Notes under the pieces: generated by a model
Databases searched by the model: none
What the model was told of the DNA's origin: nothing
Seen by the model: only the letters and a program-made list of their open reading frames with translations
From: an uncultured Gammaproteobacteria bacterium
GTDB lineage: Bacteria; Pseudomonadota; Gammaproteobacteria; Steroidobacterales; Rariloculaceae
Length of the DNA stretch: 64,000 nucleotides
Reading direction: 5' to 3'
NCBI GenBank assembly: GCA_964503125.1
Contig: CAZCZE010000020.1
Span: 159,979 to 223,978, forward strand
Shown here: positions 9,893 to 50,348 of the stretch, piece by piece
Layout: the number at the start of each line of letters is the position of its first letter
Numbering within the stretch: the first letter of the stretch is position 1
Translations under genes and position numbers: made by a program

Positions 9893-12490
<2,598 letters not shown>

Positions 12491-12506
12491 AGGATCAAGC
12501 GGAACC

Positions 12507-12923
12507 ATGCCGATCTACGAGTATCGCTGCGGTGCCTGCGGGCACCATCTCGAAGCCTTGCAGAAGATGAGCGAGGGCCCCTTACGCAAGTGCCCCGACT
12601 GCGGCAAGTCGCAGTTGCGCCGGCTCATGTCGGCGCCGCAGTTTCGCTTGAAGGGCGAGGGCTGGTACGAGACCGATTTCAAGAGCAAGAACGAGGTGAA
12701 GCGCAATCTCGTCGAGGCGACCGCCGAGAGCGGTGCCGAGGCGAAGAGCGGCGACGCGAAGGAAGCTCCCGCGAAGGCCGATGCCGACAAGGCCGCAACG
12801 GCCGCGAAGCCCGACGGCGCGGACAAGAGCGCGGCGTCCGATAAGCCCGCGCGCGCCAAGAACGCGGCGCCCGCGGGCAAGAGAGCGGCCAAGACGCGCG
12901 CGTCGAAGCCCGCGAGAGCCTGA
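12507..12923 (+). CDS. FmdB-family zinc-ribbon putative regulatory protein with Lys/Ala-rich tail
   Basis: MPIYEYRCGACGHHLE...KCPDCG is the CxxC..CxxC FmdB signature. The C-terminal half is low-complexity A/K-rich. Confidence 0.8.
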   Translation: MPIYEYRCGACGHHLEALQKMSEGPLRKCPDCGKSQLRRLMSAPQFRLKGEGWYETDFKSKNEVKRNLVEATAESGAEAKSGDAKEAPAKADADKAATAAKPDGADKSAASDKPARAKNAAPAGKRAAKTRASKPARA

Positions 12924-13567
12924 TGCGCCTGCGCCGCTACCTCGTGGCGGGGTTGCTCGTGTGGTTGCCGGTCGGCGTCACGATCCTGGTCTTCGGCGTG
13001 CTGCTCGATCTCATGGACCGCGTGCTGGTCCTGATCCCCGAGGCCTATCGCCCCGAGACGCTACTCGGCTTTCGCATTCCGGGCTTGGGCGTGGTGCTCG
13101 CGCTCGCCGTGCTGTTCGTCACGGGTGTGCTCGTCGCGAACCTGCTCGGCCGTCAGCTTGTGCTCTGGTACGAGGGGTTGCTCGCCCGCATCCCGCTCGT
13201 GCGCTCGGTGTACGGCGGCGTCAAGACCTTCGCCGCCGTGCTCTTGAGCGACACGGGGCTGTCGTTCAAGAAAGTGCTGCTCATCGAGTACCCGCGCAGA
13301 GGCGTCTACCGCATCGCGCTGCAAACGTCGGACACCGTGGCCGAGATCGCCGCGGCGACGGGCAAGCACGTCGTGACGGCGTTCGTGCCGACGACGCCCA
13401 ATGCGACGTCGGGGTTCATCGTGTTCGTGCCGCGCGAGGAGACCGTCGAGCTCACGATGACGGTCGAGGAGGCGCTCAAGCTCATCGTCTCCCTAGGCGT
13501 CGTCGTGCCCGAGTGGCAGCCCGAACGCGGCGCGGACGCGCTTGCAGGACCTGCCGCTTCGCCGTAA
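12923..13567 (+). CDS. DUF502-family membrane protein
   Basis: 214 aa with two N-terminal TM helices, IPLVRSVYGGVK and a TTPNATSGF motif typical of DUF502. The family assignment is from memory. Confidence 0.75.
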   Translation: MRLRRYLVAGLLVWLPVGVTILVFGVLLDLMDRVLVLIPEAYRPETLLGFRIPGLGVVLALAVLFVTGVLVANLLGRQLVLWYEGLLARIPLVRSVYGGVKTFAAVLLSDTGLSFKKVLLIEYPRRGVYRIALQTSDTVAEIAAATGKHVVTAFVPTTPNATSGFIVFVPREETVELTMTVEEALKLIVSLGVVVPEWQPERGADALAGPAASP

Positions 13568-13634
13568 CATCGCGGCCGCTCCGAGACTAATGCCACCTTT
13601 CAATTCAAAAGGTTAGGCTCAAAGGACCGACGCG

Positions 13635-36479: not shown

Positions 36480-38696
36480 CTACGGCCGGGTGAGCGACAC
36501 GCGCTCGTGGTGCTCGAGATGCATTTGCGTGTCGGCCGTGGCGCCCGGCCAGTTGACCAATACGGTAATCGGTGCGCGATCCGCGTTCGAGGCGGCGCTG
36601 TCCACGAGGAACCGGCTGCCATCCGCGGTCACGGCGTAATGATCGCGAGCGTCCGCCGGCCCGCCGCCGAGCGGCGGGCGAAACAGCGGGCGCGGTGGAC
36701 CGAGCAACAGCGGCGCCGAGCCCGACACTTCGACCGACATGAGCTCGCGGTCCAGGGACATGAAGAAGATCTCGCGTTGGTCCGATCGCCATTGCGGTTG
36801 CCCGCCGCCGGCATGGGAGACGCGGTATTTCTTCTCGAGCTGCGGATAACTGACGACGTAGACCTCGATCGTGCCCGATTCGTCCGAGGCGTAGGCGATC
36901 CAACGGCCGTCCGGCGAGAAGCGTGCTTGCATCTCGTTGAACGCCGTTGCGAGCAGCGGCGCGGCGCGCTCGTCGGCGACCGATACGGCCCACAGATCGA
37001 GCTTCGTCTCGCCGTTCGCCTGTGTGTAGACGATGGTGTCGCCGCGCGGAGACCAGTCGTTGAGCACCTTCACGGCGCCGTCCCGCAATAACGGTCGGGC
37101 GACACCCTCGCTGGCCGTGGGGCGGACGAGCAGGTCGATGCCGTTGCGCGAGGTGAAGGCGACGCGGTCGCCGCCCGGTGCCCAGAGCGGCGCCATGGCA
37201 TCGGTCTCGAGTCTCGTGTACTCCGCTCGCGACAGGTTCGCGAGCCACAGACCCGGGTCGTTGGTGATGGAGCCCGTGGCGAGCACGGACGTCTCATCGG
37301 GCGACAGGCGCGGATTGAACAGGGTCGTCGGCACGGACAGCGAGCCGAGCTCGGCACCCGTCCGGTCGAACCAAGCGAGGTTTTGGCGCCTGGCGCCCTC
37401 GCGGAAAGCGACCAGGTTGCCGGCGGCGGACACGATGTCTCCATCCCCGAGTGACGGTGGCGAAACGTCGCGTGCGAGCAGAATCGAACGGCCCGTCGGC
37501 TCGAGGCGCGCCAGGTCGATCTCCTCGGCGACCAGCATGCCGTTTTGCACGTGCATGACATAGCGAGGGGGCGCGAAAACGGCGGGCGACTCCGTCGCGA
37601 ACAGCAGCTCCGCGCGCGCATCGTCGAGGCTCGCGACATAGACGCCCGTTCGCGCTGCGTCGAGGCTCATCGCGTGGTAGAGATAGCGCCGCCCGTCCGG
37701 GAGAAACTGCGGCCACGTGTGGGCGAGCTCCCGCGCATCGCGGTCGAGCCTCCTGAGCTCACGGATGGCGCCGTCCCCCGACGCGTCTACGGCATAGAGA
37801 CCCGTCGGCCAGTCGGCAAAAACGATCGTGTCATCCACCCCCCACGTGCCGCCGGCGGGTGCGATGTCGCCGTCGGCGACGATTCGCGTCGTCTCGCCGC
37901 GGAGCTCCACGATGCCGATGCTTCCGGCCGCGAAGAAACCGATTCGTCGGCCATCGGGTGACCAGAAAGGCTTCGACGCGCCGGCGGTGCCGGGCAAGCG
38001 TTTGGCTTCGGACGACTGCAACCGTCGCAACCATAGCGCGCTCTTGCCGGAGCTCACGTCGCGAGCGACGAACACGAGATGCTGCGCGTCGGGCGAGAGC
38101 ACGCCGCCCGACACGATGGCGGTGCCCGGCGGCGGCGGTAGGAACAAGCGGATTGCCGCTGTCGTATCGTTGCCCGGGCTCGGCGCGCGCGACGCGAGCA
38201 CGGCGAGCCCGCTCAGCGTCACGGCAGCGACCGCCGGCCAGAACAGGCGTCCGCGTCCACGGGCCGCGGCCTGCGCGGCGGTAGGCGCTGCGAAGGCCGC
38301 GGTCGGCGATTCGTGGGTCGGCGGCGCCAGGTCGGCGGCGACGGTCTCGACCGCGCACACGAAGCGATAGCCGCGGCGAGGAACCGTTTCGATGAGGTGG
38401 GGTGCATCGGGGTGATCGGCCAGCGCGCGTCGAAGGACCGAGATCGCATGGATCAAGCTGTCGTCGGTGACGATGACGTTGTTCCAGACGGCGCCGAGGA
38501 GCTCTTCTTTGTCGACGAGCCGGTCGCGATGCTCGATGAGGTAGACGAGCGTGTCGAATGCCCGCGAGGGCAGTGCAATCGTCTCGTGCCGCCCCCGAGA
38601 GACTTTCCGGGCAGCGACGTCGACCCTAAACGGGCCAAAGACATACGGGCCGCGCGCCGTGGCCGGTTTCGGCTCGTGAGTGGGGCCCGCGGACAT
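36480..38696 (-). CDS. Membrane-anchored winged-helix (CadC/ToxR-like) transcriptional regulator with periplasmic TolB-like beta-propeller
   Basis: The start MSAGPTHE is at the complement of 38694..38696, within track ORF 36480..38873. It has an OmpR/PhoB-type wHTH (..VPRRGYRF), one TM helix (LFWPAVAAVTLSGLAVLA) and repeated PD40/TolB-like blades (FSPDGRWIAY, WAPGGDRVAF, LSPDETSV). Confidence 0.85.
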   Translation of the reverse strand: MSAGPTHEPKPATARGPYVFGPFRVDVAARKVSRGRHETIALPSRAFDTLVYLIEHRDRLVDKEELLGAVWNNVIVTDDSLIHAISVLRRALADHPDAPHLIETVPRRGYRFVCAVETVAADLAPPTHESPTAAFAAPTAAQAAARGRGRLFWPAVAAVTLSGLAVLASRAPSPGNDTTAAIRLFLPPPPGTAIVSGGVLSPDAQHLVFVARDVSSGKSALWLRRLQSSEAKRLPGTAGASKPFWSPDGRRIGFFAAGSIGIVELRGETTRIVADGDIAPAGGTWGVDDTIVFADWPTGLYAVDASGDGAIRELRRLDRDARELAHTWPQFLPDGRRYLYHAMSLDAARTGVYVASLDDARAELLFATESPAVFAPPRYVMHVQNGMLVAEEIDLARLEPTGRSILLARDVSPPSLGDGDIVSAAGNLVAFREGARRQNLAWFDRTGAELGSLSVPTTLFNPRLSPDETSVLATGSITNDPGLWLANLSRAEYTRLETDAMAPLWAPGGDRVAFTSRNGIDLLVRPTASEGVARPLLRDGAVKVLNDWSPRGDTIVYTQANGETKLDLWAVSVADERAAPLLATAFNEMQARFSPDGRWIAYASDESGTIEVYVVSYPQLEKKYRVSHAGGGQPQWRSDQREIFFMSLDRELMSVEVSGSAPLLLGPPRPLFRPPLGGGPADARDHYAVTADGSRFLVDSAASNADRAPITVLVNWPGATADTQMHLEHHERVSLTRP

Positions 38697-38786
38697 CGTT
38701 CGTTCTTGGTTTTTCCGGAGTTTTCCGCGAGTTTCGGGACTTGCATTCGAGTCTAGCGTACGAATTCTCGGAGCGGCAAGCGGCGC
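38684..38786. repeat. 103-bp direct repeat, left copy
   Basis: GGCCCGCGGACATcGTTCGTTCTTGGTTTTTCCGGAG...GAGCGGCAAGCGGCGC is identical to 50201..50303 except for one C/T difference (38697 vs 50214). It contains the first 4 codons and the 5' leader of the regulator gene. Confidence 0.95.
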
Positions 38787-38832
38787 GACCGGCGCGCGTG
38801 TCGGGTGCCATTCATCGCAGGGACGCGACACC

Positions 38833-39507
38833 ATGGCGCGCGAGCGGGCGCGGCCGCGTGCTCCACCGTTCATCGATCCGCCGGGTTACGCACGCCACCG
38901 GCCCGAGGCGACGCTGCTCTACCAAGTCGTGGAGCGGCACTACCCCGAGTTTGTCGCCACGCGTGAAGCTGCTGGCCGACCTTTACCGAAGTACGTGCAC
39001 GAGGAGTTCGAGGCGTACTTGAGGTGCGGCCGCCTCGAGCACGGTTTTCTGCGCGTCCGCTGCGAGGACTGTCACGCCGAGAAGCTCGTCGCGTTCAGCT
39101 GTAAGCGCCGCGGCTTTTGTCCCTCCTGCGGCGCCCGGCGGATGACGGACAGCGCTGCGCTCCTGGCCGACGAAGTGTTACCGAAGAAGCCGCTACGCCA
39201 GTGGGTGCTGTCGCTGCCGATGGCGTTGCGCTTCCTATTGGCCACGGACCCCAGGGCGCTGACGCAGGTGCTTGGGATCGTCTATCGAACGATCTCGGCA
39301 CCCATTCTCAAGAGGGCGCGGCTGATGCGCGCGAGCGGTGCGACGGGCGCCGTGACGCTGATCCAGAGATTTGGGTCTGCGCTCAATCTCAATATTCACC
39401 TCCACATGCTGGTGCTCGACGGCGCGTACCTCGTCGACACCGAGCCACCGGTGTTCCGCCGGATCGCGCCGCCTAGCCTGGCGGAACTACAGGCGCTTGC
39501 GCTATGA
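38833..39507 (+). pseudogene. IS91-family (Y2/HUH rolling-circle) transposase, N-terminal fragment
   Basis: MARERARP... has a zinc-binding region, CEDCHAEKLVAFSCKRRGFCPSCGARRM, and an HUH-like NIHLHMLVLDGAY. Similarity ends around ..PPSLAELQALA at about 39500. Confidence 0.8.
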
Positions 39508-41268
39508 CCTGGCGCCGAGGAAATCCCGCAGGAATTCCTCGCGTGTCAAAGGGGGTCGAACGTCGTCTCCCAACAACTCCTGTGAAGAGGCTTCCTTTCT
39601 TAGGATGCGGTCATATTCAAACGGCTCTATGGTCTCGTCGCATAGCAGGATGAGGTACTCGACCGAGCGCTCCTGCCCTCTACGGTGGATGCGGTCTAGA
39701 CTTTGGAGATAGTGCGCAGCTTGGTTAGACATCGACTCGTACACCGCGTAGCGCGCTCGGTGCAATGTTAGGCCAGCGCCGGCAGCCGCAGGGTTGCCGA
39801 CGAAGAGCATGGTGACGTCATCCTCCTGGAACCTTCGAACGGCCTCCCGTCGGTCGTTGACCGCCGAGACTGAGCCGTCAATCCTCACAGGATTGTAGTT
39901 GCTGTAGCGAGAACAGAGCGCATTTACAGACGCCGTAAAGAATGACCATACGATGACCTTCTCGCCCTTTGCTTCGATAAGATCCGTAAGGATGCTGTCA
40001 AGCGCGGCAAGTTTCGCGGGAAGGCCGCAGCCAAAGGCCGAATCTATCCCAATTGGGTTGGAGCAAATTTGGAGGAGAGCCGTGCGCCTCGCCATGAAAG
40101 ACGCCAGATTCCGTTTGAAGCTTATTTCGTCAGTGGCGCGGACATCCTCCAGCAAGCCGGACATCGCACTCTCATACAATCGCCGCTGAGCTGGCGGAAG
40201 CGGGAGTATGATGCGCCGGAACGCGCGAGCGGGTAGATCGGGCAAGACTGCGCCCTTAAGTCGACGGATGTACACGCCGCGCGCCTCAATCGTCGCCGCG
40301 ACTACGTCCCTAGCGGCAACAGGATCGGTAGGCACCTCAACGCCCGAAAACGTCTCACCATCGTCGGCGATGTTGAATTGTTCAACAAGGTCAACCGCGC
40401 TATTTGGGGCGGGCGTCCCGCACAAGACGATACATCGACCAGCTTCGCGACGGAGCCTTCGTAATGCGCGAGCCCGCTGGGCTTCGGCGTTCTTCACAAA
40501 GAAGCTCTCGTCCACAATCAGTATGGCCCGCCCTTTCTCTCCCTGTAGTAGATGGCGTATCCGGATCTCAAGCTGCGTTGCCGTTTCGAAGTTGGTAACA
40601 AATATCTCGGCAGGCTCGTCCAATGTCGCACGCTTCTCTGCCTCATGGCCTACAACGGCAGCGGCCCGGTACTTGCTACCAAAAAACCTTGTGAGGTCAT
40701 GCACCCATTCGAGCACCATGTTCTTCGGCGCGAAGATTACCGCGCGTCCGACCAAGCCCTGTTCGCGAAGCCTGTCAAACGCGAACAGGGCCTCCACCGT
40801 CTTACCAACACCCTGCTCGTCAAATATGCAGAGGCCGCGGACATCTGGATGCGCCGCCAACGCGACGGCCGTAACTTGGTGTGCATCCAGAGCATCGATC
40901 CGCTCGTAGCCCTGCAACCACATTTTCGCGGTCTCTGGGGAGGCAATGGCTGTCCGGCAGGCCGCGAGGGCAGCGCTGTGCCACTGACGCCGATGTCGCG
41001 CTGACGTAGCCGCCGCGAGAACGCCCGCTGAGACTGCAAAGGACCATCCGTCAAGCGCAATACGGCAGGCTTCGAGTTCCAACACGTCAACCAGCGCACC
41101 GCCCGCAACCGGATCAAGTTGCAGTGAGATGCCCGCTGTCCGAAGCGTCCGCTCTAAAGTGCGCAGTCTGGCGCTGGGACCAGGCTTGATGAAACAGCGA
41201 CCATCGCGCGCGAGGTTCGCATGGGCATCAAGCTGCGGCATTGGAATCCTCAGGCTGGCTGTTGTCAC
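39502..41268 (-). CDS. SNF2-family helicase-like ATPase
   Basis: 588 aa with motif I DEQGVGKT, motif II VDESFFVKN, motif III LCGTPAPNS and helicase-C QSLDRIHRRGQ. The alternative start MPQLD is 27 nt downstream. The stop sits right at the left junction of the cassette. Confidence 0.85.
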   Translation of the reverse strand: MTTASLRIPMPQLDAHANLARDGRCFIKPGPSARLRTLERTLRTAGISLQLDPVAGGALVDVLELEACRIALDGWSFAVSAGVLAAATSARHRRQWHSAALAACRTAIASPETAKMWLQGYERIDALDAHQVTAVALAAHPDVRGLCIFDEQGVGKTVEALFAFDRLREQGLVGRAVIFAPKNMVLEWVHDLTRFFGSKYRAAAVVGHEAEKRATLDEPAEIFVTNFETATQLEIRIRHLLQGEKGRAILIVDESFFVKNAEAQRARALRRLRREAGRCIVLCGTPAPNSAVDLVEQFNIADDGETFSGVEVPTDPVAARDVVAATIEARGVYIRRLKGAVLPDLPARAFRRIILPLPPAQRRLYESAMSGLLEDVRATDEISFKRNLASFMARRTALLQICSNPIGIDSAFGCGLPAKLAALDSILTDLIEAKGEKVIVWSFFTASVNALCSRYSNYNPVRIDGSVSAVNDRREAVRRFQEDDVTMLFVGNPAAAGAGLTLHRARYAVYESMSNQAAHYLQSLDRIHRRGQERSVEYLILLCDETIEPFEYDRILRKEASSQELLGDDVRPPLTREEFLRDFLGARS

Positions 41269-42550
41269 CCTCGCTACTGGATTGCAGTCCGTGAAGGATC
41301 TTCACGGTGTCAGTGAGTATCTGGCGCAAATGATCAAGGCTTGTCGGCGTCAGCCGTCGATAGTCCTCCCGTTTGAAGCTGTCCAGCCAGGCCGCGAAGT
41401 GCGTAATCCGTTCGTTCGCTGCGGACTTGTCTTTGATACGCACGGGATCATTCGAGATGACCGTCTCGATAGCCCGCTTGACCCCCTCGTCATCATCGGC
41501 ATTCGCGTGTTTGCGCGCCTCAGGATCTTGCAGAATCTTCGGAACCGACCTGACGTCAACGAACGATTTGAACTTGCCCTCCCAGAGCCAGCGAAATACT
41601 TCATCGCGTGCATCCGGGTTCGTCTCTAGCGTCCCCCAGACACCTGGTTTGCTGAGCTCATCGAAATACTCGAAGTTTTCTTGAATCTGCAGCTCGACGT
41701 CGACCTCCGGTCGGTCGAACTCCTCTTCGTGGTACTCCTTGAACTGGGAAGCCAAACCAAACATTTTGATCCAGCGGTCAGCTTGCCGCCAGCCACTCAG
41801 CCCAAACTCCTCCGCGATCTGCACCTTCGCCGCACGTTTGACCTGCGGATCATGCGGATCTTCCGCGGCGAGACGCTGGTAGATATTGAAGACCTCCTCC
41901 GCTTTCACGTACGAGGGCCACGGGATGTGATCCTTCTCCTTGAAGTTCAGCTCCGTCAAGACGGCCCGTTTGACGGCCGTGTCCGTCTCAGGGTCTCCTG
42001 ACGGAACGTGCACGTAGGCTGGCAGCCAGCGCGCTTGATTCCGCGCGCCGCTAAACGCCGGATCAGTCATGATGTGTTGAGCGCCATACCGGCGGCGATT
42101 GCCATCCCACAGCGTGCCGTGATTACCATTCACGTGGATGAAGATTGGTTCCTGCACACCATTCGCGGCGATGTTGTGTGCCATGCGTTCCAGGTGGAAC
42201 GGCTTTCTTGATCGAGCCGACTCGCCGCGATCGGCCTCCAACATGACTTCGTAAATTTCTTGCGTCGTGGGCTCCTTATTCATATCGCCCTGCCGTGCGC
42301 GCCATCGACGCAAGTAGTGTTTCAGCCGGATGTTCTCGGCCCAGCCGTCCACGTCATCGATATGAACACGCCCGTACCACACTGATACCTCGCGGCCGTG
42401 GTACCTGCGGGTCATTCGCCGAGGCTGGTGCTCGGCGTCGGCGCTCGCGACTTCGCGCACGTACCGATCGAGGATCGTCGGCCACTCGGGGCGACGACCT
42501 GCTTGGCCCGTACCGGGCGGGGTAGCAGTGTTGGCCATTTGAGTCTCCAT
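41228..42550 (-). CDS. ParB/Srx-fold N-terminal domain protein (arginine patch GNRR) with HTH-like segment
   Basis: 440 aa with QEPIFIHVNGNHGTLWDGNRRRYGAQ, which resembles the ParB box II GERRxRA NTP-binding patch. It is followed by IAEEFGLSGWRQADRWIKM (HTH-like). No recognisable nuclease domain follows. Confidence 0.65.
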   Translation of the reverse strand: METQMANTATPPGTGQAGRRPEWPTILDRYVREVASADAEHQPRRMTRRYHGREVSVWYGRVHIDDVDGWAENIRLKHYLRRWRARQGDMNKEPTTQEIYEVMLEADRGESARSRKPFHLERMAHNIAANGVQEPIFIHVNGNHGTLWDGNRRRYGAQHIMTDPAFSGARNQARWLPAYVHVPSGDPETDTAVKRAVLTELNFKEKDHIPWPSYVKAEEVFNIYQRLAAEDPHDPQVKRAAKVQIAEEFGLSGWRQADRWIKMFGLASQFKEYHEEEFDRPEVDVELQIQENFEYFDELSKPGVWGTLETNPDARDEVFRWLWEGKFKSFVDVRSVPKILQDPEARKHANADDDEGVKRAIETVISNDPVRIKDKSAANERITHFAAWLDSFKREDYRRLTPTSLDHLRQILTDTVKILHGLQSSSEGDNSQPEDSNAAA

Positions 42551-42594
42551 TGCGGTTAGTGTGTGTGCATGTGAAAGACGCGCGCTGTGACAAG

Positions 42595-43395
42595 TCAGCT
42601 CTCGTCTTCATCGAGTTGATCGACCATAAAGCTCCCGCGGGTCTCCTCGAACGCCGCCACGAAACGAGCAGGCGGTCTCAACCCTAACTCCGTCACTACT
42701 TTCGGAATCTCGACGTGCAGCGCCGCGTAGGCTCGCTGCTTAGCCTTCCTGAAAGCGGCGGGCTTCATCCCCAAAGAGGCCGCCGCCATCTGTGACTGCA
42801 CGTCGAAGTCCTTGCGAGCGAAGTCGAACTGGAACGTCGAGAGATGTCGGATCAGTGCACGCTGCTTGAGCGTCAATTTCTCAAGAGCCGCCTCGACGAC
42901 AACCACTGCCCATGACCCGTCCGCCTCCACGTCGCTGAGAGTTTCCTCAACAGCGACCACAGCCCAGGCCGCGGGCACGAGCGTTGACCCATCGACGGAT
43001 GCGTCTGTTGCATCTGCGCTTGCCGGCGCCGGTGCAGACAATGCCTCAACCGAACTGACCAACTCATTGCGCCGTCGGCGGTGCAGCGTAGCGCCGCAGT
43101 TCCAAGCCGATCGCGCTAGATAGGCGTAGGGATCGGAGATTCGTTGGCCGTGTCTGCGCTCGACGAACGCCTCCAGAGCCTCCGCAATACAATCCTCAGC
43201 ATCCGAGATCTGTAGATTGAGACCGGATGACACGAGCCGCAGCAGGCGCGGTACTCCTTCCCCGACCATGACCTGGTAGAAGGCGGCTCGATCAGCTGCT
43301 GCCCAGAGTTGCGCCAGGCGTGTCGCCAATGACAACTGTTCCTCTTCATCTTCGTTTGACACGCCGGCCCGCTTCCCCGCCTCCGTTCTATCCAT
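42595..43395 (-). CDS. ECF-sigma-factor-like protein
   Basis: The start MDRTEAGK is at the complement of 43393..43395, within track ORF 42595..43521. It is region-2-like (ISDAEDCIAEALEAFVERR...DPYAYLARSAWNCGATLHRRRRNE) and region-4-like (LTLKQRALIRHL...QMAAASLGMKPAAFRKAKQRAYAAL), with an Ala/Asp/Val-rich linker between. Confidence 0.55.
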   Translation of the reverse strand: MDRTEAGKRAGVSNEDEEEQLSLATRLAQLWAAADRAAFYQVMVGEGVPRLLRLVSSGLNLQISDAEDCIAEALEAFVERRHGQRISDPYAYLARSAWNCGATLHRRRRNELVSSVEALSAPAPASADATDASVDGSTLVPAAWAVVAVEETLSDVEADGSWAVVVVEAALEKLTLKQRALIRHLSTFQFDFARKDFDVQSQMAAASLGMKPAAFRKAKQRAYAALHVEIPKVVTELGLRPPARFVAAFEETRGSFMVDQLDEDES

Positions 43396-43637
43396 CACAT
43401 AGACGCGAGCCGTGACACTCGGCAGCGATCGCGCGCTCGCACACGCCAGGGGAAGCGTAACAAGCACATAGACTTGCACGGCGCCTGCATAGATGCGTAG
43501 TTGCGCACCTATGTGCGTCAATGCTCACTGACGCACAAATATGCGCTAATACAAGCCAAAGCCCGTCTGTTTGCGTCTTACAGCACGAACCGGCAGAATC
43601 TTGCGCTGCCTTAGCGCAGCGATAACGAAGGGCGTCG

Positions 43638-43835
43638 ATGAGCAAGACTGTGAGGTTAAGTACGACGATCGACAGCCGATTGGCAGTGCGACTCCAGCGC
43701 GAGACCGACGAACGGACGCCTCGGCTTCCTAAGAGATACGTCATCGAGCTCGCTCTCCAGAGACTCTTCGAGGCCGTTGACCGTGGTCAGCTGGAGTTAG
43801 GACTAGGCGACGATGCCCGATCAAAAAGCGAATAA
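43638..43835 (+). CDS. Ribbon-helix-helix (CopG/Arc-like) small DNA-binding protein
   Basis: 65 aa. MSKTVRLSTTIDSRLAVRLQRE is a beta-strand plus helix pattern typical of RHH. It overlaps the C5-methyltransferase start by 23 nt and is divergent from the sigma-like operon. Confidence 0.55.
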   Translation: MSKTVRLSTTIDSRLAVRLQRETDERTPRLPKRYVIELALQRLFEAVDRGQLELGLGDDARSKSE

Positions 43836-45168
43836 GAAAAGGCTTCCCGTCATATCGCTGTTTAGCGGCGCTATGGGACTCGACCTGGGCCTCGAAGCAG
43901 CGGGCCTTCGTATCGCTGTTGCGCTAGAGTGCAACAGGTTTCCGTTGGCGACCATCCGGAAGAACCGTCCGAACCTTCCCTTGATCAACCAGCCGATCGA
44001 GGACGTTACAACGAAGGAAATCCTCGATGCCGCGGGATTAAAACCAGGAGAGGCGTTCGCGGTGGTAGGCGGACCGTCCTGCCAAGTGTTCAGCACAGCG
44101 GGAAATCGCCGATCGCTTGCCGATCCTCGTAGCACGATGTTCAAGCACTTCGTGCGCGTTATTCAGGAAGCAAGGCCGAAGTTTTACGTGATGGAGAATG
44201 TCCGCGGGCTTATTTCGGCTGCGGTGCGTCACCGCCCATTGAATCAGCGCGGACCCGGCTTCCCGCCTCTCGAAGAGGATGAGGAACTAGGGTCAGCCTT
44301 CAAAGTTGTCGCCGCGTCGTTACGAGGGCTCGGCTACTACAGTGTGTTCGACGTGTTGAACGCGGCTGACTACGGCGTTCCGCAGGCACGGCAGCGACTA
44401 CTGATCCTCGGTAGCCGGGATGGGAAGAAGATACGGATGCCGGAGCCGAGTCACGACCAGCACCGCCGCGATAAACGTCTTCGCTGGCGTACGCTCCGTG
44501 ATGCATTCAAAGGATGGGAAGAGGACAGTCGAGAGTTCTACAACTTTTGCCCGTCGAAGGAGCGCTATCTAAAATTGGTGCCCGAAGGTGGCAATTGGCG
44601 AGACCTACCGGAGCGCATGAAAAGTGAGGCGCTCGGGAGTGCGTTCGACTCGTGGGGCGGGAGATCCGGCTTTTTCCGACGGCTCTCCTTAGATGAACCG
44701 AGTCCCGCTCTTACCACGCGACCCGATAGCAAGGCGACGACACTCTGTCATCCGACTGAGCTAAGACCGCTAACGGTCGGTGAGTATGCACGAATCCAGC
44801 AGTTCCCCTCCCACTGGGTGTTCGAGGGAAGCGTCCGAAAAAAGTACGAACAAGTTGGAAACGCTGTGCCCATCGGACTCGGGAAAGCTGTCGGCAAGGC
44901 GCTGCTGGAGGCATCACGTACTCACGCGAATCCGCAGCGTTTGGAGCGAATTGAGTGCCTAAATCTCGACCTGCTATCAAAGCTCAGTCGCCGACCACGG
45001 ACAATCGTTAACCCCCCGCGGATGCGTGTTAGTGCTAAAGATGAAACGATATCGGAGTGGCACGGCGATGGGCCACGAATGCGCCTCGACGCATTTGACT
45101 ACGCGCCTCCTGGAACAGTAAAGGCATTACAGAAGCTCATCGGACGCTCAAACAGCGCTGGTTTGTAA
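43813..45168 (+). CDS. DNA (cytosine-5)-methyltransferase
   Basis: 451 aa with motif I ISLFSGAMGLDLG, motif IV GGPSCQVFS, motif VI ENV, motif VIII QARQRLLILG and motif X GNAVP. Confidence 0.9.
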   Translation: MPDQKANKKRLPVISLFSGAMGLDLGLEAAGLRIAVALECNRFPLATIRKNRPNLPLINQPIEDVTTKEILDAAGLKPGEAFAVVGGPSCQVFSTAGNRRSLADPRSTMFKHFVRVIQEARPKFYVMENVRGLISAAVRHRPLNQRGPGFPPLEEDEELGSAFKVVAASLRGLGYYSVFDVLNAADYGVPQARQRLLILGSRDGKKIRMPEPSHDQHRRDKRLRWRTLRDAFKGWEEDSREFYNFCPSKERYLKLVPEGGNWRDLPERMKSEALGSAFDSWGGRSGFFRRLSLDEPSPALTTRPDSKATTLCHPTELRPLTVGEYARIQQFPSHWVFEGSVRKKYEQVGNAVPIGLGKAVGKALLEASRTHANPQRLERIECLNLDLLSKLSRRPRTIVNPPRMRVSAKDETISEWHGDGPRMRLDAFDYAPPGTVKALQKLIGRSNSAGL

Positions 45169-45343
45169 TAAGCCGAGACGCGTCAAGCGGCATCGCGGAC
45201 GCAAGCGTGGTGAACTCTTCTTGTCTGAGGCGATCTAGGCAGGCGAAAGACAACTTTGCACGGTCAGAACGTGCAACCCTATTCACTGGAACCTGCGTGC
45301 TGGAGGCCACATCATCGAGCAGAATTCCGGGTGGCTTGAGTCG

Positions 45344-45697
45344 TTGATTAGTGCACGCGACCGAGTGAACCACTACAAGGATGGGGGCATCGAGCCAGAC
45401 GTGTTTACGGTGTGCGCGATCAACGACAAAGACGATGTAACCGTGCAGATTCCGATGTGGTCTGATGAACAATCGGTGGCACAGATGACGTTCGCCGCTT
45501 TCGGTGCGCTATTTCATTTCGTCGAGCAGTTCTTTTTCGCTGTTTTGGCGGCTCGTCTCCCCGACGAGCTGGGCGTCCTAAAGGCGTCCAACGTCCCACT
45601 CTATGAGCCACAGTCGCCTATCCATATCATGCGAACCTCAGAGTTCGAAGCGATTCGCGCTAAGGGCGGATGGTCGTCGCGTGGGGATCCGCTCTAA
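45344..45697 (+). CDS. Hypothetical protein (weak call)
   Basis: 117-aa track ORF with a TTG start. It has no recognisable motif and overlaps an equally unconvincing antisense ORF (45137..45472). Confidence 0.2.
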   Translation: MISARDRVNHYKDGGIEPDVFTVCAINDKDDVTVQIPMWSDEQSVAQMTFAAFGALFHFVEQFFFAVLAARLPDELGVLKASNVPLYEPQSPIHIMRTSEFEAIRAKGGWSSRGDPL

Positions 45698-46025
45698 CAG
45701 GGCGTGTGCGCGATTTCTGATCGAAACGCAGAAATACAGTACTAGCCACCGGCCTACTACTGGATGGACGCTTCGCCACGATGCTTGCCAAGATCCTGCG
45801 CATGCCGCCGCCCGTTGTCCTGACCGACGAGGATCTCAAGATCGCCGAGGCAGCATGCCGCCGCCTAGCCGCGCGGTATCGGCGCAAACGCGATTTCGAG
45901 ACGGCCGCGAGTTGGGAAGGGATGGCCGACAGAATCGCGCGCGTGCGGGCGCCGCGGTGACGGAGCAAGAGTTACAGACGCTCGCCGATCTAGGTGAGCG
46001 GCACGCGATCTACGCCCTCTCCAAT

Positions 46026-49000
46026 CTAGGAGTGCCAAGCTAATGAACTGTCGCGACAGCCGCGATAGTTTTCATCGAGTTGCTCGTTTAGCAACACGAT
46101 AGACGCGAGGCGGCGGATCATTGAAGACACGTATCGCGCTTCCGCCTTCGTTAACGGGCGGCCAAGGACACCTCCTTCGCGGTAGGAAAGCCATTTTTTC
46201 ACGACCTGATATCCACCGATGCGAAACTCCCACACTGCCGTTGGAACGTTGCCCCAATAGACGTGGTCGTTGAGGAATACGTCCACAGGTGGTCCAAAAC
46301 GTTCAAGCGCGGAATGCATACCCGGGACGTTCTGCAAAAGCAGCTTGAAGTTCGGCAATTCCTCCCAAGCTCGTTGCGCGAGCCGGCCCTTACCAGGCAT
46401 CACTGTCCCTTCAGTCATACCGCCCCACCCAACGTCCAAGTAGAGATCCTTAGCCGCTAGTTGTCCGCCCCCGACGCGAGAGACGTTTCCAAGCTCCGCG
46501 AGGAGCGGAGCCATCGATTCTAAGCTCGCGTTATCGAACCCTTGATCTGGATCCAATAGCGCGGCAATTCGGGCGCCTAGCTTGGCGGAGCGAAGAAGAC
46601 TGGTTTGGTCGGAGGGCAAGGGCACACGCGGCCAGTCGTTCAAGACGCCGTCCCTATTCTCCGCGAAATATTCGGGCGCGGAGAGAATCGCGGTTGCATG
46701 CATCCAGATAAGGTCAGTCACGCTACTGTCGGAATCCGGATCTCCAATTGTCAGTTCAGCGATGTACTTCCGCGCTCTAACGGACAGATTCGCGCGCGAC
46801 TTGCCTTTCTCCATCTCCAACAGAAGTCCGCCGACGTTTCCGTCGGTGTTCGGTGCAAGGCGGAAGGGAATAGCGACGACGTTTGGTCGAAGAAGGTGAT
46901 AGTCCGGGAGTGCCGCCGTGATCATTGCCGCGATACCCTCGTTCGGCCGCTCCGCGGACATCCGTGTAACTAGAGCCTTAGTGGCCATAGGCAGGTTGTT
47001 GACCAGAGCGGGGCGCGGCTCATTCCACAACGGCCTCGCTGCGCTCCAATAGCACCACCGATGGTCGAGCGGATAGAGCGCGTAGCGGCGAACAGCCGAA
47101 GCGCTATACGGAGCCGTCTTCAACAAAGCTGCGCGGACTTTCTGTGCGTCGAATCGCCCGCCGTCCTTGACCGGACCAATTTGTGCGGCGACGAGGGCTT
47201 GCCAGCTCACAGCCGAATCCAAATACGTGGCCATACGTTTCTCAAGCGTCACACGGTCTATCGACATGAGGGTCCCGCGGCGCATCTCCTGCAGGCCACT
47301 GATTGGCTCGGCCTCGCACAGGTCGATGACGCGCGGCCACGACAGATAGGATGCTGTTACGTTCTGAGGTTTGAACGTGAAACGGTTAATCGCCGTTGGG
47401 CTAGTCATTGCGTACTGCTCATCGAACGCAGGCACTTTGAGACTGTCTAGAACGGCCTCTCTCTTTGATGCGCCCCAGAACTCCCTAAATCGCACAATCG
47501 GTTTCTCGACGCGATCCTGCCGCAATACGAATAGGCCGATCGACGTCCCGAGCTTGATTCCCTCGCGATTGAACTCCGTTGAAAACACGGACGGGTCGGG
47601 CTCCCCAGTCGGCGTCAATTTGCCGGTCTCCCGCGAGTCGCCGTTAAGACTATCGATCCAGATGGCATCGAACTGTTTCAACAGTCGCTCGCGTAGAACA
47701 ACGTAGGAAGGATCTCCGAGATACGAATAGCTGGAGATGTAGCTAAAAATTCCTCTTCCAGTCTGCGCGATCCTTCGTTCCGCGATCCGAAAGAACCTGA
47801 CGTAAAGCTCATCCAAATTGAACTTTTTTATCCCCCATTTGCTATTCAATCCCGCCTTGTACGGTTCGACTAATCCCTGCTCCTCGTCCGGGCTCGTCCC
47901 TGCGTACGCGTTGTACGGCGGGTTACCAAGAATCACGAGCACCGGAACATCACGCTTCACGTGCTCTGCTGCGTCCCTTTCCACTTCGAGTTCCGGAAAC
48001 ATGGCGAGGGTTGCCTTTGGCCCGGTGGGCACGTCCCAGCCTGTCAAGGCGTTCGTGAGATAGATCGAGGGCCGTTCCCCTTCTTCAGGATCCAAAGGCG
48101 CACCGAAGCTTGCGAGCAGGTTTCCCACTTGCCAATGCGCAACAACGAATGATGCAGGTAGGATCTCAAAGCCAAATACACGCTCGCGCGCGGCTTCCTT
48201 GAGATCCTCCCCGATCAAGGCGTCACTGCCTTCGTCAGTCAACGTTGCGGCGATGCGCCGGAGTACTTCCACGACGTACGCGCCGGTGCCGCAGCAAGGG
48301 TCAAGAACATAGACGTTTTTATCCGCGAGGCCGCGTTCGAGGTTGAGTTCTGTTCTTAGGAGGTGATCGACGCGCTGAACCATGTACTTCACTATTTCTG
48401 CCGGTGTATACCAGACGCCAAGTTCTTTTCTCAGCTCCGGATCGAAGTCTTTTAGGAAGGGCTCGTAGAAGTGCTGAACGGCTTGGCCGCTATCGAAACT
48501 AGCGAAGAACTCTTTCCGCTTTACTCGATTCAGGGCTTCGCCGGTCCTGTCTAAGATCGCCGAAATTCCGAGTGTGCTGAGGCGAACGGGATTTGCGACT
48601 TCAGCGAAGATGCTCCGGATCATCGGAACGGTTAGCACATAGCCGGCGGTCTTCCAGTCGAATGCAGATTTGCCTTCCCGCGATACGAGTACCCACGCAG
48701 AAAACACGCCGTAGAAAAGCGTTTGGACGAGCGTCGATTTGAAGAAGTGATCTCCCTTCTTGCCGTGAAACTTGATACCAAGGATCGTCTCCAATCCCTC
48801 GCGCAGCGGTTTTAGCGCTAGATCGTCCTTCTTTTCGACCGTTTTGAGCGCTTCTCTCGCATACGACGCAAGAAACCCAGCGATGTCCCCGGGGCGCGTA
48901 AGTGGTGCCGCGCTCATCAGCACGCGCCGCGCGAACTCGGTGAAGGCGTCAACGTGATCACTCGCTGCCTTCACGGGGTCCGCACACATTAGCCAAAACG

Positions 49001-49457
49001 TGCTCTCGTCGGTCGCGAAGCTATAGAACTCGCGCTCCTGTGGGTTACCCGAAGAGTCTTCGCCGATTAGCCGAAAATCCCGATAGTTGCTAAGCAGAAT
49101 TAGCCGATAGAGACCGAAGTACTTCGTTGCCTGATCGCTGTTGGCCGTTCGCCAAGTGTCGTCTGAAAGGGGCTTTACCTCGATTACGCCGCGCTCCGGA
49201 ATCGCGCCCATTCCCTTCTTCGGAGCGCCTTTTGAAAACTGGCTCTTGGTGTACAAGCCGAAGTCAGGATGCCCTGAGCCTTGATTACGCAGTTGGCCAT
49301 TGCATACGACGGCTGGTTTTAAGGTCTTCCCAATGGCATTCAGAAGGTTTTCGAGGGCGGCGTAGTAGGAGGTCTCATCGGTCGCGCTGCCTGTACTGCG
49401 GATCTCTAGCATCCGCTCGAAGTACTTGCGGATGGCCTCCTCAATGTTGTCGCCCAA
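46026..49457 (-). CDS. Type IIG/IIL-like restriction-modification fusion: N-terminal PD-(D/E)xK nuclease-like domain + gamma-class N6-adenine methyltransferase + C-terminal specificity region (type ISP-like C-terminus)
   Basis: 1143 aa. The N-terminus GHPDFGLY...GVIEVKPL...QATKYF resembles the D..ExK..Q..Y layout of MmeI-type enzymes. It has MTase motif I VLDPCCGTG and motif IV GNPPY. No helicase motifs are seen in this polypeptide. Confidence 0.8.
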   Translation of the reverse strand: MGDNIEEAIRKYFERMLEIRSTGSATDETSYYAALENLLNAIGKTLKPAVVCNGQLRNQGSGHPDFGLYTKSQFSKGAPKKGMGAIPERGVIEVKPLSDDTWRTANSDQATKYFGLYRLILLSNYRDFRLIGEDSSGNPQEREFYSFATDESTFWLMCADPVKAASDHVDAFTEFARRVLMSAAPLTRPGDIAGFLASYAREALKTVEKKDDLALKPLREGLETILGIKFHGKKGDHFFKSTLVQTLFYGVFSAWVLVSREGKSAFDWKTAGYVLTVPMIRSIFAEVANPVRLSTLGISAILDRTGEALNRVKRKEFFASFDSGQAVQHFYEPFLKDFDPELRKELGVWYTPAEIVKYMVQRVDHLLRTELNLERGLADKNVYVLDPCCGTGAYVVEVLRRIAATLTDEGSDALIGEDLKEAARERVFGFEILPASFVVAHWQVGNLLASFGAPLDPEEGERPSIYLTNALTGWDVPTGPKATLAMFPELEVERDAAEHVKRDVPVLVILGNPPYNAYAGTSPDEEQGLVEPYKAGLNSKWGIKKFNLDELYVRFFRIAERRIAQTGRGIFSYISSYSYLGDPSYVVLRERLLKQFDAIWIDSLNGDSRETGKLTPTGEPDPSVFSTEFNREGIKLGTSIGLFVLRQDRVEKPIVRFREFWGASKREAVLDSLKVPAFDEQYAMTSPTAINRFTFKPQNVTASYLSWPRVIDLCEAEPISGLQEMRRGTLMSIDRVTLEKRMATYLDSAVSWQALVAAQIGPVKDGGRFDAQKVRAALLKTAPYSASAVRRYALYPLDHRWCYWSAARPLWNEPRPALVNNLPMATKALVTRMSAERPNEGIAAMITAALPDYHLLRPNVVAIPFRLAPNTDGNVGGLLLEMEKGKSRANLSVRARKYIAELTIGDPDSDSSVTDLIWMHATAILSAPEYFAENRDGVLNDWPRVPLPSDQTSLLRSAKLGARIAALLDPDQGFDNASLESMAPLLAELGNVSRVGGGQLAAKDLYLDVGWGGMTEGTVMPGKGRLAQRAWEELPNFKLLLQNVPGMHSALERFGPPVDVFLNDHVYWGNVPTAVWEFRIGGYQVVKKWLSYREGGVLGRPLTKAEARYVSSMIRRLASIVLLNEQLDENYRGCRDSSLAWHS

Positions 49458-49664: not shown

Positions 49665-50114
49665 CGGCCCGATGGACGATCTTCTGGGGCACTCGATCAC
49701 GGGACGACGCACATCGTGCTGGAGCCGTTGGACTTCATCGCTCGCCTCGCGGCGCTGGTGCCGCCGCCGCGGGTACACCTGACGAGGTTCCATGGGGTGT
49801 TCGCGGCGCACGCGGTGCTGCGAGCGGCGATCACCCCGGCAGGAAGAGGGTCGGGGGCACAGCAGCGAACCACCGCCCCGGAGCAGCCTAGACTCAAGGA
49901 TCTTCGCATGACCTGGGCGCGCCGCCTAAAACGCGTGTTCGGGATCGAGATTGAGCAGTGCGCGCGCTGCGGCGGGCGCTTGAAGGTGATCGCGAGCATC
50001 GAGGAACCGGAGCTGATCGAGCGCATCCTCACGCACCGGCGGGAGCGGGGCGAGGAGGCGGCACCGACGACCGCGCTCGGGGCGCGAGCGCCGCCGCAGG
50101 GGCTGTTGTTCTGA
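49665..50114 (+). pseudogene. IS91-family transposase, C-terminal fragment
   Basis: ..DHGTTHIVLEPLDFIARLAALVPPPRVHLTRFHGVFAAHAVLRAAI.. and CARCGGRLKVIASIEEPELIERIL are typical IS91-family C-terminal blocks. Weaker similarity (..SVSHINEVGAHCLRGLRPR..RRLTA) continues upstream from about 49530 in another frame, implying a frameshift. Confidence 0.75.
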
Positions 50115-50200: not shown

Positions 50201-50303
50201 GGCCCGCGGACATTGTTCGTTCTTGGTTTTTCCGGAGTTTTCCGCGAGTTTCGGGACTTGCATTCGAGTCTAGCGTACGAATTCTCGGAGCGGCAAGCGG
50301 CGC
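50201..50303. repeat. 103-bp direct repeat, right copy
   Basis: See the left copy. Here the duplicated MSAG codons run into an unrelated 23-codon remnant ORF. The repeat is followed 45 nt later by the ATG of 50349. Confidence 0.95.
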
Positions 50304-50348
50304 AAACCGCCGCCTGTTTGCCGATGAGTCGCGGTAGTAGGGGGAGCG

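Follow-up and report, generated by a model that had tools for sequence, protein, structure and literature searches.

Type I and type III restriction-modification (R-M), BREX, DISARM, Dpd and Hma form a class of systems that mark self and are driven by nucleoside triphosphates (NTPs). DISARM joins a self-marking methylase to an SNF2-type motor (the DrmD and DrmMII variants) in a multi-gene defence-island cassette, and Dpd sets a ParB-like ATPase (DpdB) beside SNF2-like helicases (DpdE/J) in a modification-based, R-M-like system. Hma comprises an SNF2 helicase with a fused PD-(D/E)xK nickase (HmaA), a methyltransferase (HmaB) and an ATPase (HmaC), and its anti-phage activity has been shown (PMC11232893). 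An SNF2 ATPase and a DNA methyltransferase also make up the DarB-type methylase-helicase dyad, in whose conflict context ParB-superfamily domains occur as well (PMC5512222). The locus described here resembles these systems and appears to correspond to none of them. It lies in a stretch of 64,000 nucleotides (nt) from an uncultured gammaproteobacterium of the Rariloculaceae (contig CAZCZE010000020.1, positions 159,979 to 223,978), referred to below as the window, and consists of a minus-strand operon for a divergent sigma-like protein, a ParB-superfamily protein and an SNF2-family translocase, together with a C5 cytosine DNA methyltransferase that is transcribed divergently from it.

A first-pass annotation of the window had proposed the three-gene operon, next to two DNA methyltransferases, as a combination that it could not place among described defence or partition systems. 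All three open reading frames (ORFs) were recovered on the minus strand where it had put them (39502-43395), and its domain calls agree with Pfam, motif, profile and structure comparison. The picture of a trio beside two methylases holds in part: the trio is genuine and co-oriented and both enzymes are there, a C5 methyltransferase and a type IIG fusion; the former belongs to the unit and the latter is unrelated to it. Judged by gene content and profile scores, the cassette appears to match no described defence or partition system that could be tested, so the inability to assign it stands. The interpretation favoured here, held tentatively and given somewhat less than an even chance, is that the cassette is a self-marking, NTP-driven, R-M-like immunity system.

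Comparison with described systems

By our analysis the cassette would be functionally most like DISARM, Hma, Dpd and type I/III R-M, with which it shares a methylase and a motor, and it lacks the defining components of each. The window methylase matches the DrmMII model at 9.7e-89 and the SNF2 protein matches DrmD in part, at 6e-19 (PADLOC), and no other DISARM model was hit; DrmA, DrmB (DUF1998) and DrmC (PLD) are missing from the window cassette, and DISARM itself has no ParB-like or sigma-like component. The scores of the SNF2 protein also fall far below the curated cut-offs of known motor families (score/cut-off in bits: DrmD equivalog 27.8/610, ZorD 35.6/1500, DpdE 34.5/500, RapA 24/576, SCO1167 98/1200). 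Its best PADLOC match is DpdE, at 3.7e-28. In the cassette the modification enzyme is a C5 methylase, unlike in Dpd, and DpdA (TGT), DpdC and the other dpd genes were found neither in the window island nor in related loci.

The combination of SNF2 motor, PD-(D/E)xK nuclease and methyltransferase is shared with Hma, whose nuclease is fused to the motor (NOV_C, DUF3883), whose methylase is of the DUF1156 type and whose third gene encodes a DUF499 ATPase. In the cassette, in contrast, the nuclease is separate and optional, the methylase is Dcm-type, counterparts of HmaB (DUF1156) and HmaC (DUF499) are absent, and the HmaA model reaches 29.4 bits over the C-terminal lobe only. Type I, type III and ISP R-M enzymes differ in that the motor of the cassette is SNF2-type without a fused nuclease and its methylase is a C5 rather than an N6-adenine enzyme. 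The sigma-like protein would fill the delay or controller role of R-M controller (C) proteins, although these are small Xre-type helix-turn-helix (HTH) dimers that bind palindromes.

Among ParB-family CTPase clamps (ParB/Spo0J, Noc, KorB, PadC), the likeness lies in the predicted fold of the NTP-binding domain and possibly of the HTH region, in a DGNRR motif where the clamps have GERR, and in an E-x-N motif. The cassette differs from them in having neither ParA nor a palindromic parS-like site, with methylase, SNF2 and sigma-like genes linked instead, and its ParB-like protein carries a distinct beta-rich N-terminal segment and a helical C-terminal domain of ~150 amino acids (aa). Group 4, or extracytoplasmic function (ECF), sigma factors resemble the sigma-like protein in its putative sigma-2 and sigma-4 signatures and in the half-sites TGnAAC and CGTC; they differ from it in spacer length (16-17 nt, against 6-7 nt in the cassette), and the cassette protein has a long acidic interdomain linker, no membrane anti-sigma and, in one locus, an apparent fusion to the ParB-like protein.

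No description of this gene combination was found in the literature searched, where the nearest concept is the DarB-type dyad (PMC5512222). DarB-type dyads are giant fused proteins with adenine methylases that are packaged or transferred by phages and plasmids (PMC5512222), whereas the cassette has separate genes, a C5 enzyme, a chromosomal location and a signature gene that is absent from phage and plasmid collections.

Gene content and distribution of the cassette

Sixteen genome loci, from a scan of one genome per species, and ten metagenome loci, from exact-protein look-ups, were fetched; a census by tblastn, ORF clustering and Pfam covered 24 loci and the window, making 25 sources. The genome loci (labelled, with the others, L001 onwards) come from Aliidongia, Rhodospirillaceae, Nitrospirae, Methylophilaceae, Melainabacteria, Holophagales, Dehalococcoidia, Chitinophagaceae, Solirubrobacterales and Elusimicrobia. 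The ParB-like gene, the signature gene of the cassette, is present in 25/25 sources, the C5 methyltransferase and the sigma-like gene in 23/25 each, and SNF2 in 20/25. An HhH-GPD glycosylase is found in 15/25 and a Vsr gene in 3/25, none of the latter with HhH-GPD, while about 11/25 sources have a small gene of ~145 aa that overlaps the SNF2 stop. The order is [small ORF]-C5 methyltransferase-[HhH-GPD or Vsr]-sigma-like-ParB-like-SNF2-[PD-(D/E)xK nuclease], with the methylase transcribed divergently. The neighbourhood survey that the first-pass annotation had recommended therefore finds SNF2, sigma-like and C5 methylase genes co-occurring with the ParB-like gene across phyla, and on this distribution the cassette has evidently spread horizontally through at least eight bacterial phyla.

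A word-seeded search with the ParB-like protein gave 156 matches, all of ~430 aa and 50-85% identical. The family is small, with 201 representatives at E<=1e-3 among 1.84 billion in a full HMMER pass. It includes a distant subfamily of ~508 aa and ~30% identity, in which SNF2 and methylase are present at ~50% identity and a homologous sigma-like gene (hhalign E 1.5e-5) lies directly upstream.

The annotation had itself named a finding that would overturn its reading, namely that the genes are routine leading-region genes of plasmids or integrative and conjugative elements (ICEs), encoding ParB-like and SNF2 anti-restriction proteins, and that their linkage is not conserved; partition genes of such elements, adjacent by chance, are a variant of it. 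ArdC-N and SSB genes near the cassette of L021 and an integrase in L001 would fit this explanation. However, the ParB-like protein has no tblastn match in 72,556 plasmids or 50,697 phage genomes and none in IMG/VR, and no ParA-type gene accompanies it in any annotated neighbourhood of the related loci. The linkage is instead conserved, also at chromosomal sites between housekeeping genes (L018, L024), and the explanation is effectively refuted. Elsewhere the flanking genes are unrelated between loci and often concern defence or mobility, including AbiEii, NACHT, integrase, RES, RE_EcoO109I and Cas1, as well as Mrr_cat, REase-ARP, ArdC-N, SSB and HerA.

Across phyla and amid these unrelated flanks, the methylase belongs to one orthologous group in 23/25 sources (mean pairwise identity 57%, minimum 50%, up to 100%), which makes the C5 methyltransferase an integral, co-inherited component rather than a mere neighbour. 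The alternative is two independent modules that share islands, a type II or orphan C5 methylase with Vsr/Mig-type repair and sometimes a REase on one side and an unrelated trio on the other. The varying side and orientation of the methylase relative to the trio speak for such a division, as do the classical RE_EcoO109I gene after the methylase in one locus, the methylase of L022 at a distance of ~4 kb and the lack of a cis element before the methylase. Against it stand the single orthologous group at >=50% identity with a conserved target-recognition region, a methylase tail that tracks SNF2 (see below) and a possible methylase/ParB-like read-through in L026, which may be an assembly artefact. 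An origin as separate modules is thus considered decidedly improbable. The type IIG enzyme, by comparison, was rejected as a part of the system: it is found in 1/25 sources, the window, and in 0/24 other loci, and constitutes a second, independent R-M-type gene.

The methyltransferase and its repair partner

A C5 methylase with PCQ and ENV motifs and an adjacent T:G-repair gene characterise the cassette family; the window has the methylase only. The repair slot holds either of two unrelated enzymes, HhH-GPD (15 loci), whose sequences show an EndoIII/MutY-type Cys cluster, or Vsr (3 loci). Enzymes of both types repair the T:G mismatches that arise from deamination of 5-methylcytosine (5mC) beside C5 methylases, as in the pairs Dcm-Vsr and M.MthTI-Mig. 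That one can replace the other in one slot speaks for an active methylase and for 5mC as the mark. HhH-GPD had also been entertained as an effector glycosylase, which was downgraded because Vsr takes its place in 3 loci and because beside a methylase is its usual site.

A C-terminal tail of ~60 aa (G-x-V-x-C ... RPRTxLNPPRMR) was present in every SNF2-linked methylase aligned and was missing from the three SNF2-less Dehalococcoidia methylases aligned. Its presence tracks that of SNF2, which suggests that the tail is a contact between methylase and motor. In searches of PDB, residues ~259-376 of the methylase (GGNWRDLP ... GGRSGFFRRL ... PSPALTT), a target-recognition segment, align with the corresponding part of eukaryotic DNMT1.

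The 65-aa ORF upstream of the methylase recurs at that position in L017 (68% identity) and L001 (42%) and may encode a small DNA-binding protein that controls the methylase; it has no Pfam match, and reading it as a ribbon-helix-helix protein is a guess only. In two unrelated loci, L022/L023 (498-2694) and L026 (4121-5308), the cassette-type methylase adjoins a prephenate dehydratase (PDT) gene, and in L022 it also stands beside a separate 190-aa Sigma70_r4 protein.

The SNF2 motor and the coupled nuclease

The window SNF2 protein is by its sequence a bona fide SNF2 ATPase, with two RecA-like lobes and motifs I, II, III and VI. Both Pfam domains are above threshold (SNF2-rel_dom 1.8e-16, Helicase_C 7.1e-11), and GVGKT, DESF, CGTPA and QSLDRIHRRGQ are intact in the window and conserved across 10 orthologues, in line with the earlier call of a motor with all helicase motifs. 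The N-terminal ~120 aa are poorly conserved, with the complete ATPase core behind them. The closest solved structures in a PDB search are ISWI, SMARCA5, SsoRad54, LSH and DDM1; the RapA match is weak and confined to the N-terminal half.

Wherever the small gene occurs (L003, L005/6, L007, L015, L019/20, L022/23), it overlaps the stop of SNF2. Its conserved residues read H-E-x-x-R ... P-D-V ... G-E-A-K, and its best PDB match, a weak one (E 0.35), is to SdaI, a restriction enzyme, over its catalytic PD...EAVK segment. It is read here as a probable PD-(D/E)xK nuclease subunit of the motor, translationally coupled to SNF2. Genes of 141 aa in L021 and 119 aa in L018 were considered as homologues of it, and alignment gave no support. 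Other nuclease genes, RE_EcoO109I and HNH, stand beside the methylase in other loci.

Neither the small nuclease nor HhH-GPD was found in the window by tblastn. Its cassette lacks a T:G-repair gene and the small nuclease and ends at an IS91 fragment, which leaves room for partial decay or for a nuclease-free variant. The window copy may be either, like its closest relatives.

An alternative in which nothing is cut deserves attention here. The SNF2 protein would be tethered via the tail of the methylase, with the ParB-like clamp as its loader, and would drive processive or maintenance C5 methylation for epigenetic marking or counter-restriction, as a split-gene counterpart of the DarB-type dyad and in the manner of eukaryotic DNMT5 or DDM1/LSH-DNMT1. 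Such a machine without restriction would explain why the tail is absent from the three SNF2-less methylases aligned, and the concept of a methylase-helicase dyad exists (PMC5512222). The top library match of the SNF2 protein is phrog_62, at 246.8 bits, against <=96 bits to any defence SNF2 model (PADLOC); the alphaproteobacterial clade, with the window in it, has no nuclease; and the target-recognition region is conserved and aligns in part with DNMT1. It is harder to reconcile with the nuclease coupled to SNF2 in about half of the loci, with a signature gene that is unmatched in plasmid, phage and viral collections, with the REase or HNH genes that adjoin the methylase in other loci, and with neighbourhoods that resemble defence islands. 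Methylation without restriction is accordingly regarded as unlikely.

The ParB-like protein

Pfam, NCBIfam, PADLOC and PHROGs gave nothing above threshold for the window ParB-like protein, HTH_ParB of Pfam included, and its sole library match is phrog_4715 (ParB-like partition protein) at 9.4e-5. The protein is too divergent to be detected with canonical ParB sequences, and Pfam ParB_N is reached at E<=0.01 by 7/65 members of the family. An AlphaFold2 (AF2) model from the 65-sequence alignment has a predicted local distance difference test score (pLDDT) of 89.2, and its top 25 Foldseek matches in PDB are all ParB (M. xanthus), KorB, Noc, PadC or Spo0J. These matches have a probability of ~1 and modest E-values of ~1e-3; the alignments cover 216-288 columns on targets of ~200 residues (N-terminal domain and HTH), with a global template modelling (TM) score of only 0.29-0.56. 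In the family profile, ELWDGNRRF aligns with ELIAGERRW of Noc. LWDGNRR is invariant in the family, as are G150, N151, R152, R153, E200 and N202, and a conserved E-x-N motif follows the arginine patch.

By its modelled N-terminal fold and its arginine patch, the protein would therefore belong to the ParB/Srx superfamily and to the ParB-CTPase clamp type. This bears out the earlier description of a ParB fold with a LWDGNRR patch; in line with it, no nuclease domain was detected. As partition machinery the locus does not qualify: the annotated neighbourhoods show no ParA-type gene, and the only conserved site is asymmetric, not a palindromic parS as in ParABS. Two neighbours are of the same superfamily. 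In L001 a second, different gene (11516-13573; 685 aa, ParB_N and HTH_ParB) adjoins the cassette and is followed by NACHT/STAND genes, and in L003 a paralogue of the cassette protein (5845-7071, minus strand), 22% identical to it, lies beside the cassette.

The sigma-like protein and its candidate cis element

The sigma-like protein is the fastest-evolving component of the cassette (mean pairwise identity 35%). The window copy is itself sub-threshold (TIGR02983 1.3e-6, far under the cut-off; Sigma70_r2 15.6 bits against a cut-off of 24). In the family, at E<=0.01, Sigma70_r2 is found in 11/22 members and Sigma70_r4_2 in 6/22, and the L008 orthologue passes the Sigma70_r2 cut-off with 24.3 bits. 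The protein has sigma-2-like and sigma-4-like domains linked by an acidic linker of ~40 aa. The top Foldseek match of its AF2 model (pLDDT 80.5) is chain F of a M. tuberculosis RNA polymerase initiation complex (176 residues; probability 0.97, E 0.048), presumably an ECF sigma factor to go by the chain letter and size, as the match line names no molecule; sigma32, SigA, SigB and the sigma-4 domain of SigL also match. The earlier proposal of region-2-like and region-4-like sigma-70 segments is consistent with these family-level and structural matches.

An asymmetric element of 18-19 nt, TG[T/C][A/C]AC-N6/7-[C]GTCT[A/T] (TGYMAC-N6/7-CGTCTW), occurs on the sense strand twice per cassette in most loci, once just upstream of the sigma-like gene and once in the short stretch that separates this gene from the ParB-like one (Table 1). 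The second position also holds the element in L002, L003, L008, L010, L017, L018, L021 and L024. A loose regular expression gave 36 matches in 405 kb of fetched sequence, against 15.8 expected, and 22 of them, from 12 sources, fall at the two predicted positions. Variants are clade-specific: TGTCAC in the alphaproteobacterial clade, TGCAAC-N7 in Dehalococcoidia and TGTAAC in several others. The distance from element end to gene start is 4-18 nt for the sigma-like and 24-52 nt for the ParB-like gene, a placement that would suit a promoter with a leaderless or short-leader transcript in the first case and a leader containing a Shine-Dalgarno sequence in the second. The upstream block had been considered as an N-terminal coding extension of the sigma-like protein, which was rejected because the element recurs in the sigma-like/ParB-like gap; an in-frame TAG between element and ATG in L001 also marks the element as non-coding.

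TGnAAC and CGTC are the half-sites of ECF promoters, such as those of B. subtilis SigW/X/M and E. coli RpoE. The spacer of the element, however, is 6-7 nt in all clades against 16-17 nt for ECF promoters, and is thus one helical turn short. Being asymmetric, the site would be suited to a monomer with two domains, as sigma factors are, and not to a dimeric ParB or ribbon-helix-helix protein. We infer that the sigma-like protein probably recognises the element, either in association with RNA polymerase or by binding DNA on its own, and the copy before its own gene suggests autoregulation. No copy precedes the methylase in the window or the related loci that were scanned, and the window has no copies outside the cassette beyond chance. 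A scan for canonical sigma-70 promoters gave 1 site in 7.2 kb, under the shuffle mean.

Two candidate fusions bear on the partners of these proteins. P0202 (738 aa), from a single metagenomic contig (L025), has a sigma-like N-terminal half and a ParB-like C-terminal half, and a cassette-type SNF2 gene (47% identity) starts 3 nt after it. Sigma-like profiles give sensible hhalign alignments to P0202 (E 7.8e-4 to 1.5e-3), but with a low probability of 16-25%, and the fusion is therefore suggestive. Such an apparent fusion points to joint action of the sigma-like and ParB-like proteins in a complex. P0232 (L026) joins a methylase C-terminus, tail included, to a ParB-like domain; the methylase of this locus is split, and the joined product may have arisen in assembly.

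The same data admit a DNA-sensing transcription switch, in which the ParB-like clamp would be an anti-sigma-like partner whose DNA binding or NTP-gated closure frees or activates the sigma-like protein. The latter would then transcribe from its own elements, and SNF2 would act on RNA polymerase, in the manner of RapA, or on DNA. The order of sigma and then partner recalls ECF sigma/anti-sigma pairs, and the apparent fusion in L025 resembles the ECF41/42 groups, in which ECF sigmas have fused regulatory extensions. The half-sites match the ECF -35 and -10 consensus, and the weak RapA match points in the same direction. On the other side, no external regulon is visible in the window, the spacer is too short by one helical turn for a holoenzyme, and such a switch accounts neither for the obligatory methylase nor for the T:G-repair gene or the nuclease coupled to SNF2. 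A switch of this kind is held to be improbable.

Setting of the locus in the window

The GC content of the window is ~68% and falls to 56-60% between ~39.5 and 49.7 kb. This low-GC block, which had been read as horizontally acquired and is upheld as an island, is bounded by two same-strand fragments of one IS91-family transposase (Table 1). The N-terminal one carries the Zn_Tnp_IS91 domain and matches the Y2_Tnp profile over positions 1-29; the C-terminal one matches that profile over positions 149-178. With some 120 codons of the catalytic domain lost, the island represents a replacement and not a clean insertion. The entire IS91 and island segment is enclosed by a direct repeat of 110 nt (38684-38793 and 50201-50310, 96% identical), which spans the promoter region and first codons (MSAG...) of a Trans_reg_C/PD40 regulator gene (36480-38873, minus strand). 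IS91-family elements are not known to generate duplications as long as 110 nt.

The stop codon of SNF2 is the very end of the cassette, and an IS91 transposase fragment starts there. Translation of SNF2 probably begins at the orthologous ATG at 41241, overlapping the ParB-like stop by 14 nt, and that of the ParB-like gene likely at the ATG at 42538, which has GGAG upstream and agrees with the 436-aa product called by NCBI. The C5 methylase and type IIG genes are ~850 bp apart (45169-46025), and this interval is the position of HhH-GPD in relatives; no similarity to HhH-GPD was found there by tblastn, and the ORF at 45603-46043 has no Pfam match.

Three SNF2-less loci hold, in place of SNF2, an HhH-GPD-HTH_3 (Xre-type) fusion gene directly after the ParB-like gene and on the same strand. 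The domains were identified by Pfam in L008, and the L009 and L010 proteins are 52-55% identical over the full length. In the Dehalococcoidia clade the glycosylase could therefore be more than a methylase accessory.

Table 1. Features of the window and fusion genes of related loci, with their coordinates
Feature	Coordinates	Strand	Remarks
SNF2-family dsDNA translocase	39502..41268	-	588 aa from GTG 41268; Pfam, motifs, PDB matches
ParB-superfamily protein	41228..42550	-	ParB_N-like NTP-binding domain, putative HTH region, all-helical C-terminal domain
Divergent ECF-type sigma-like protein	42595..43395	-	266 aa
Element copy 1, TGTCACGGCTCGCGTCTA	43400..43417	-	Ends 4 nt before sigma-like ATG
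Element copy 2, TGTCACAGCGCGCGTCTT	42575..42592	-	Right after sigma-like stop; 24-36 nt upstream of ParB-like start
Small ORF	43638..43835	+	65 aa; overlaps methyltransferase start by 23 nt
C5 cytosine DNA methyltransferase	43813..45168	+	451 aa; Pfam DNA_methylase 5.3e-53
Type IIG restriction/N6-adenine methyltransferase fusion	46026-49457	-	1143 aa; Type_ISP_C specificity domain, N6_Mtase
IS91-family transposase fragments	38680-39507 and 49716-50114	+	Pfam
HhH-GPD-HTH_3 fusion gene, L008	11381-12295		
HhH-GPD-HTH_3 fusion gene, L009	5544-6437		
HhH-GPD-HTH_3 fusion gene, L010	11374-12273		

Proposed function

From the genes present, their shared inheritance, their conserved motifs and the cis element, we infer the following steps for an R-M-like immunity system. 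The methylase would write 5mC at a fixed motif on host DNA and thereby mark self, and HhH-GPD or Vsr would mend the T:G mismatches that follow from deamination, limiting the mutagenic cost. Through its own element, the sigma-like protein may control the restriction-side genes apart from the methylase, like an R-M controller circuit, and it is probably in a physical complex with the ParB-like protein. The latter would serve as a DNA clamp or sensor, gated by NTP, and would engage DNA without the mark. The SNF2 motor would translocate on such DNA, and the coupled PD-(D/E)xK nuclease, where present, would cleave it; the C-terminal tail of the methylase may tether this enzyme to the motor. The first-pass annotation had offered a sensing/effector or an anti-restriction module; the former is favoured over the latter, with the mechanism put forward conditionally.

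Several observations weigh against an R-M-like role. The window cassette and its closest relatives, L001, L002 and L017 (77-83% identity), have no recognisable nuclease, and four Dehalococcoidia-type loci have no SNF2, which makes the motor dispensable for some function of the core. The target-recognition region of the methylase is conserved and not diversified, an unusual state for an R-M system under pressure from phages. The SNF2 protein has its nearest counterparts in the SNF2 modules that occur in polyvalent proteins of phages and plasmids (phrog_62), which are thought to act in counter-defence. Furthermore, a spacer of 6-7 nt is incompatible with a canonical sigma-70-family holoenzyme promoter, and the predicted structures behind the ParB and sigma fold assignments have modest Foldseek E-values.

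A more specific version of the R-M-like immunity reading can be formulated, which we consider rather unlikely in its full detail. A ParB-type NTP-gated clamp would sense 5mC-marked self against unmarked foreign DNA while complexed with a sigma-70-family protein repurposed to read a compact bipartite site, shorter by one helical turn than any holoenzyme promoter, and would pass the DNA to a methylase-tethered SNF2 motor. If true, this would be the first such immune system and a prokaryotic counterpart of the eukaryotic SNF2-DNMT partnership.

Implications

The cassette is small (5-6 kb) and directly clonable. Should it prove to act in defence, the self-marking, NTP-driven class would gain an uncharacterised family that spans phyla, with two parts unprecedented in that class: a ParB-fold clamp with an intact arginine patch and an ECF-like sigma protein. 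The site assigned to the latter, with textbook half-sites and a spacer impossible for a holoenzyme, bears on whether sigma-70-family domains can bind specific DNA sites on their own. That SNF2 is obligatorily paired with a C5 methylase, one with a conserved tail and a DNMT1-like target-recognition segment, would furthermore be relevant to the origin of SNF2-dependent cytosine methylation in eukaryotes, as carried out by DNMT5 and DDM1/LSH.

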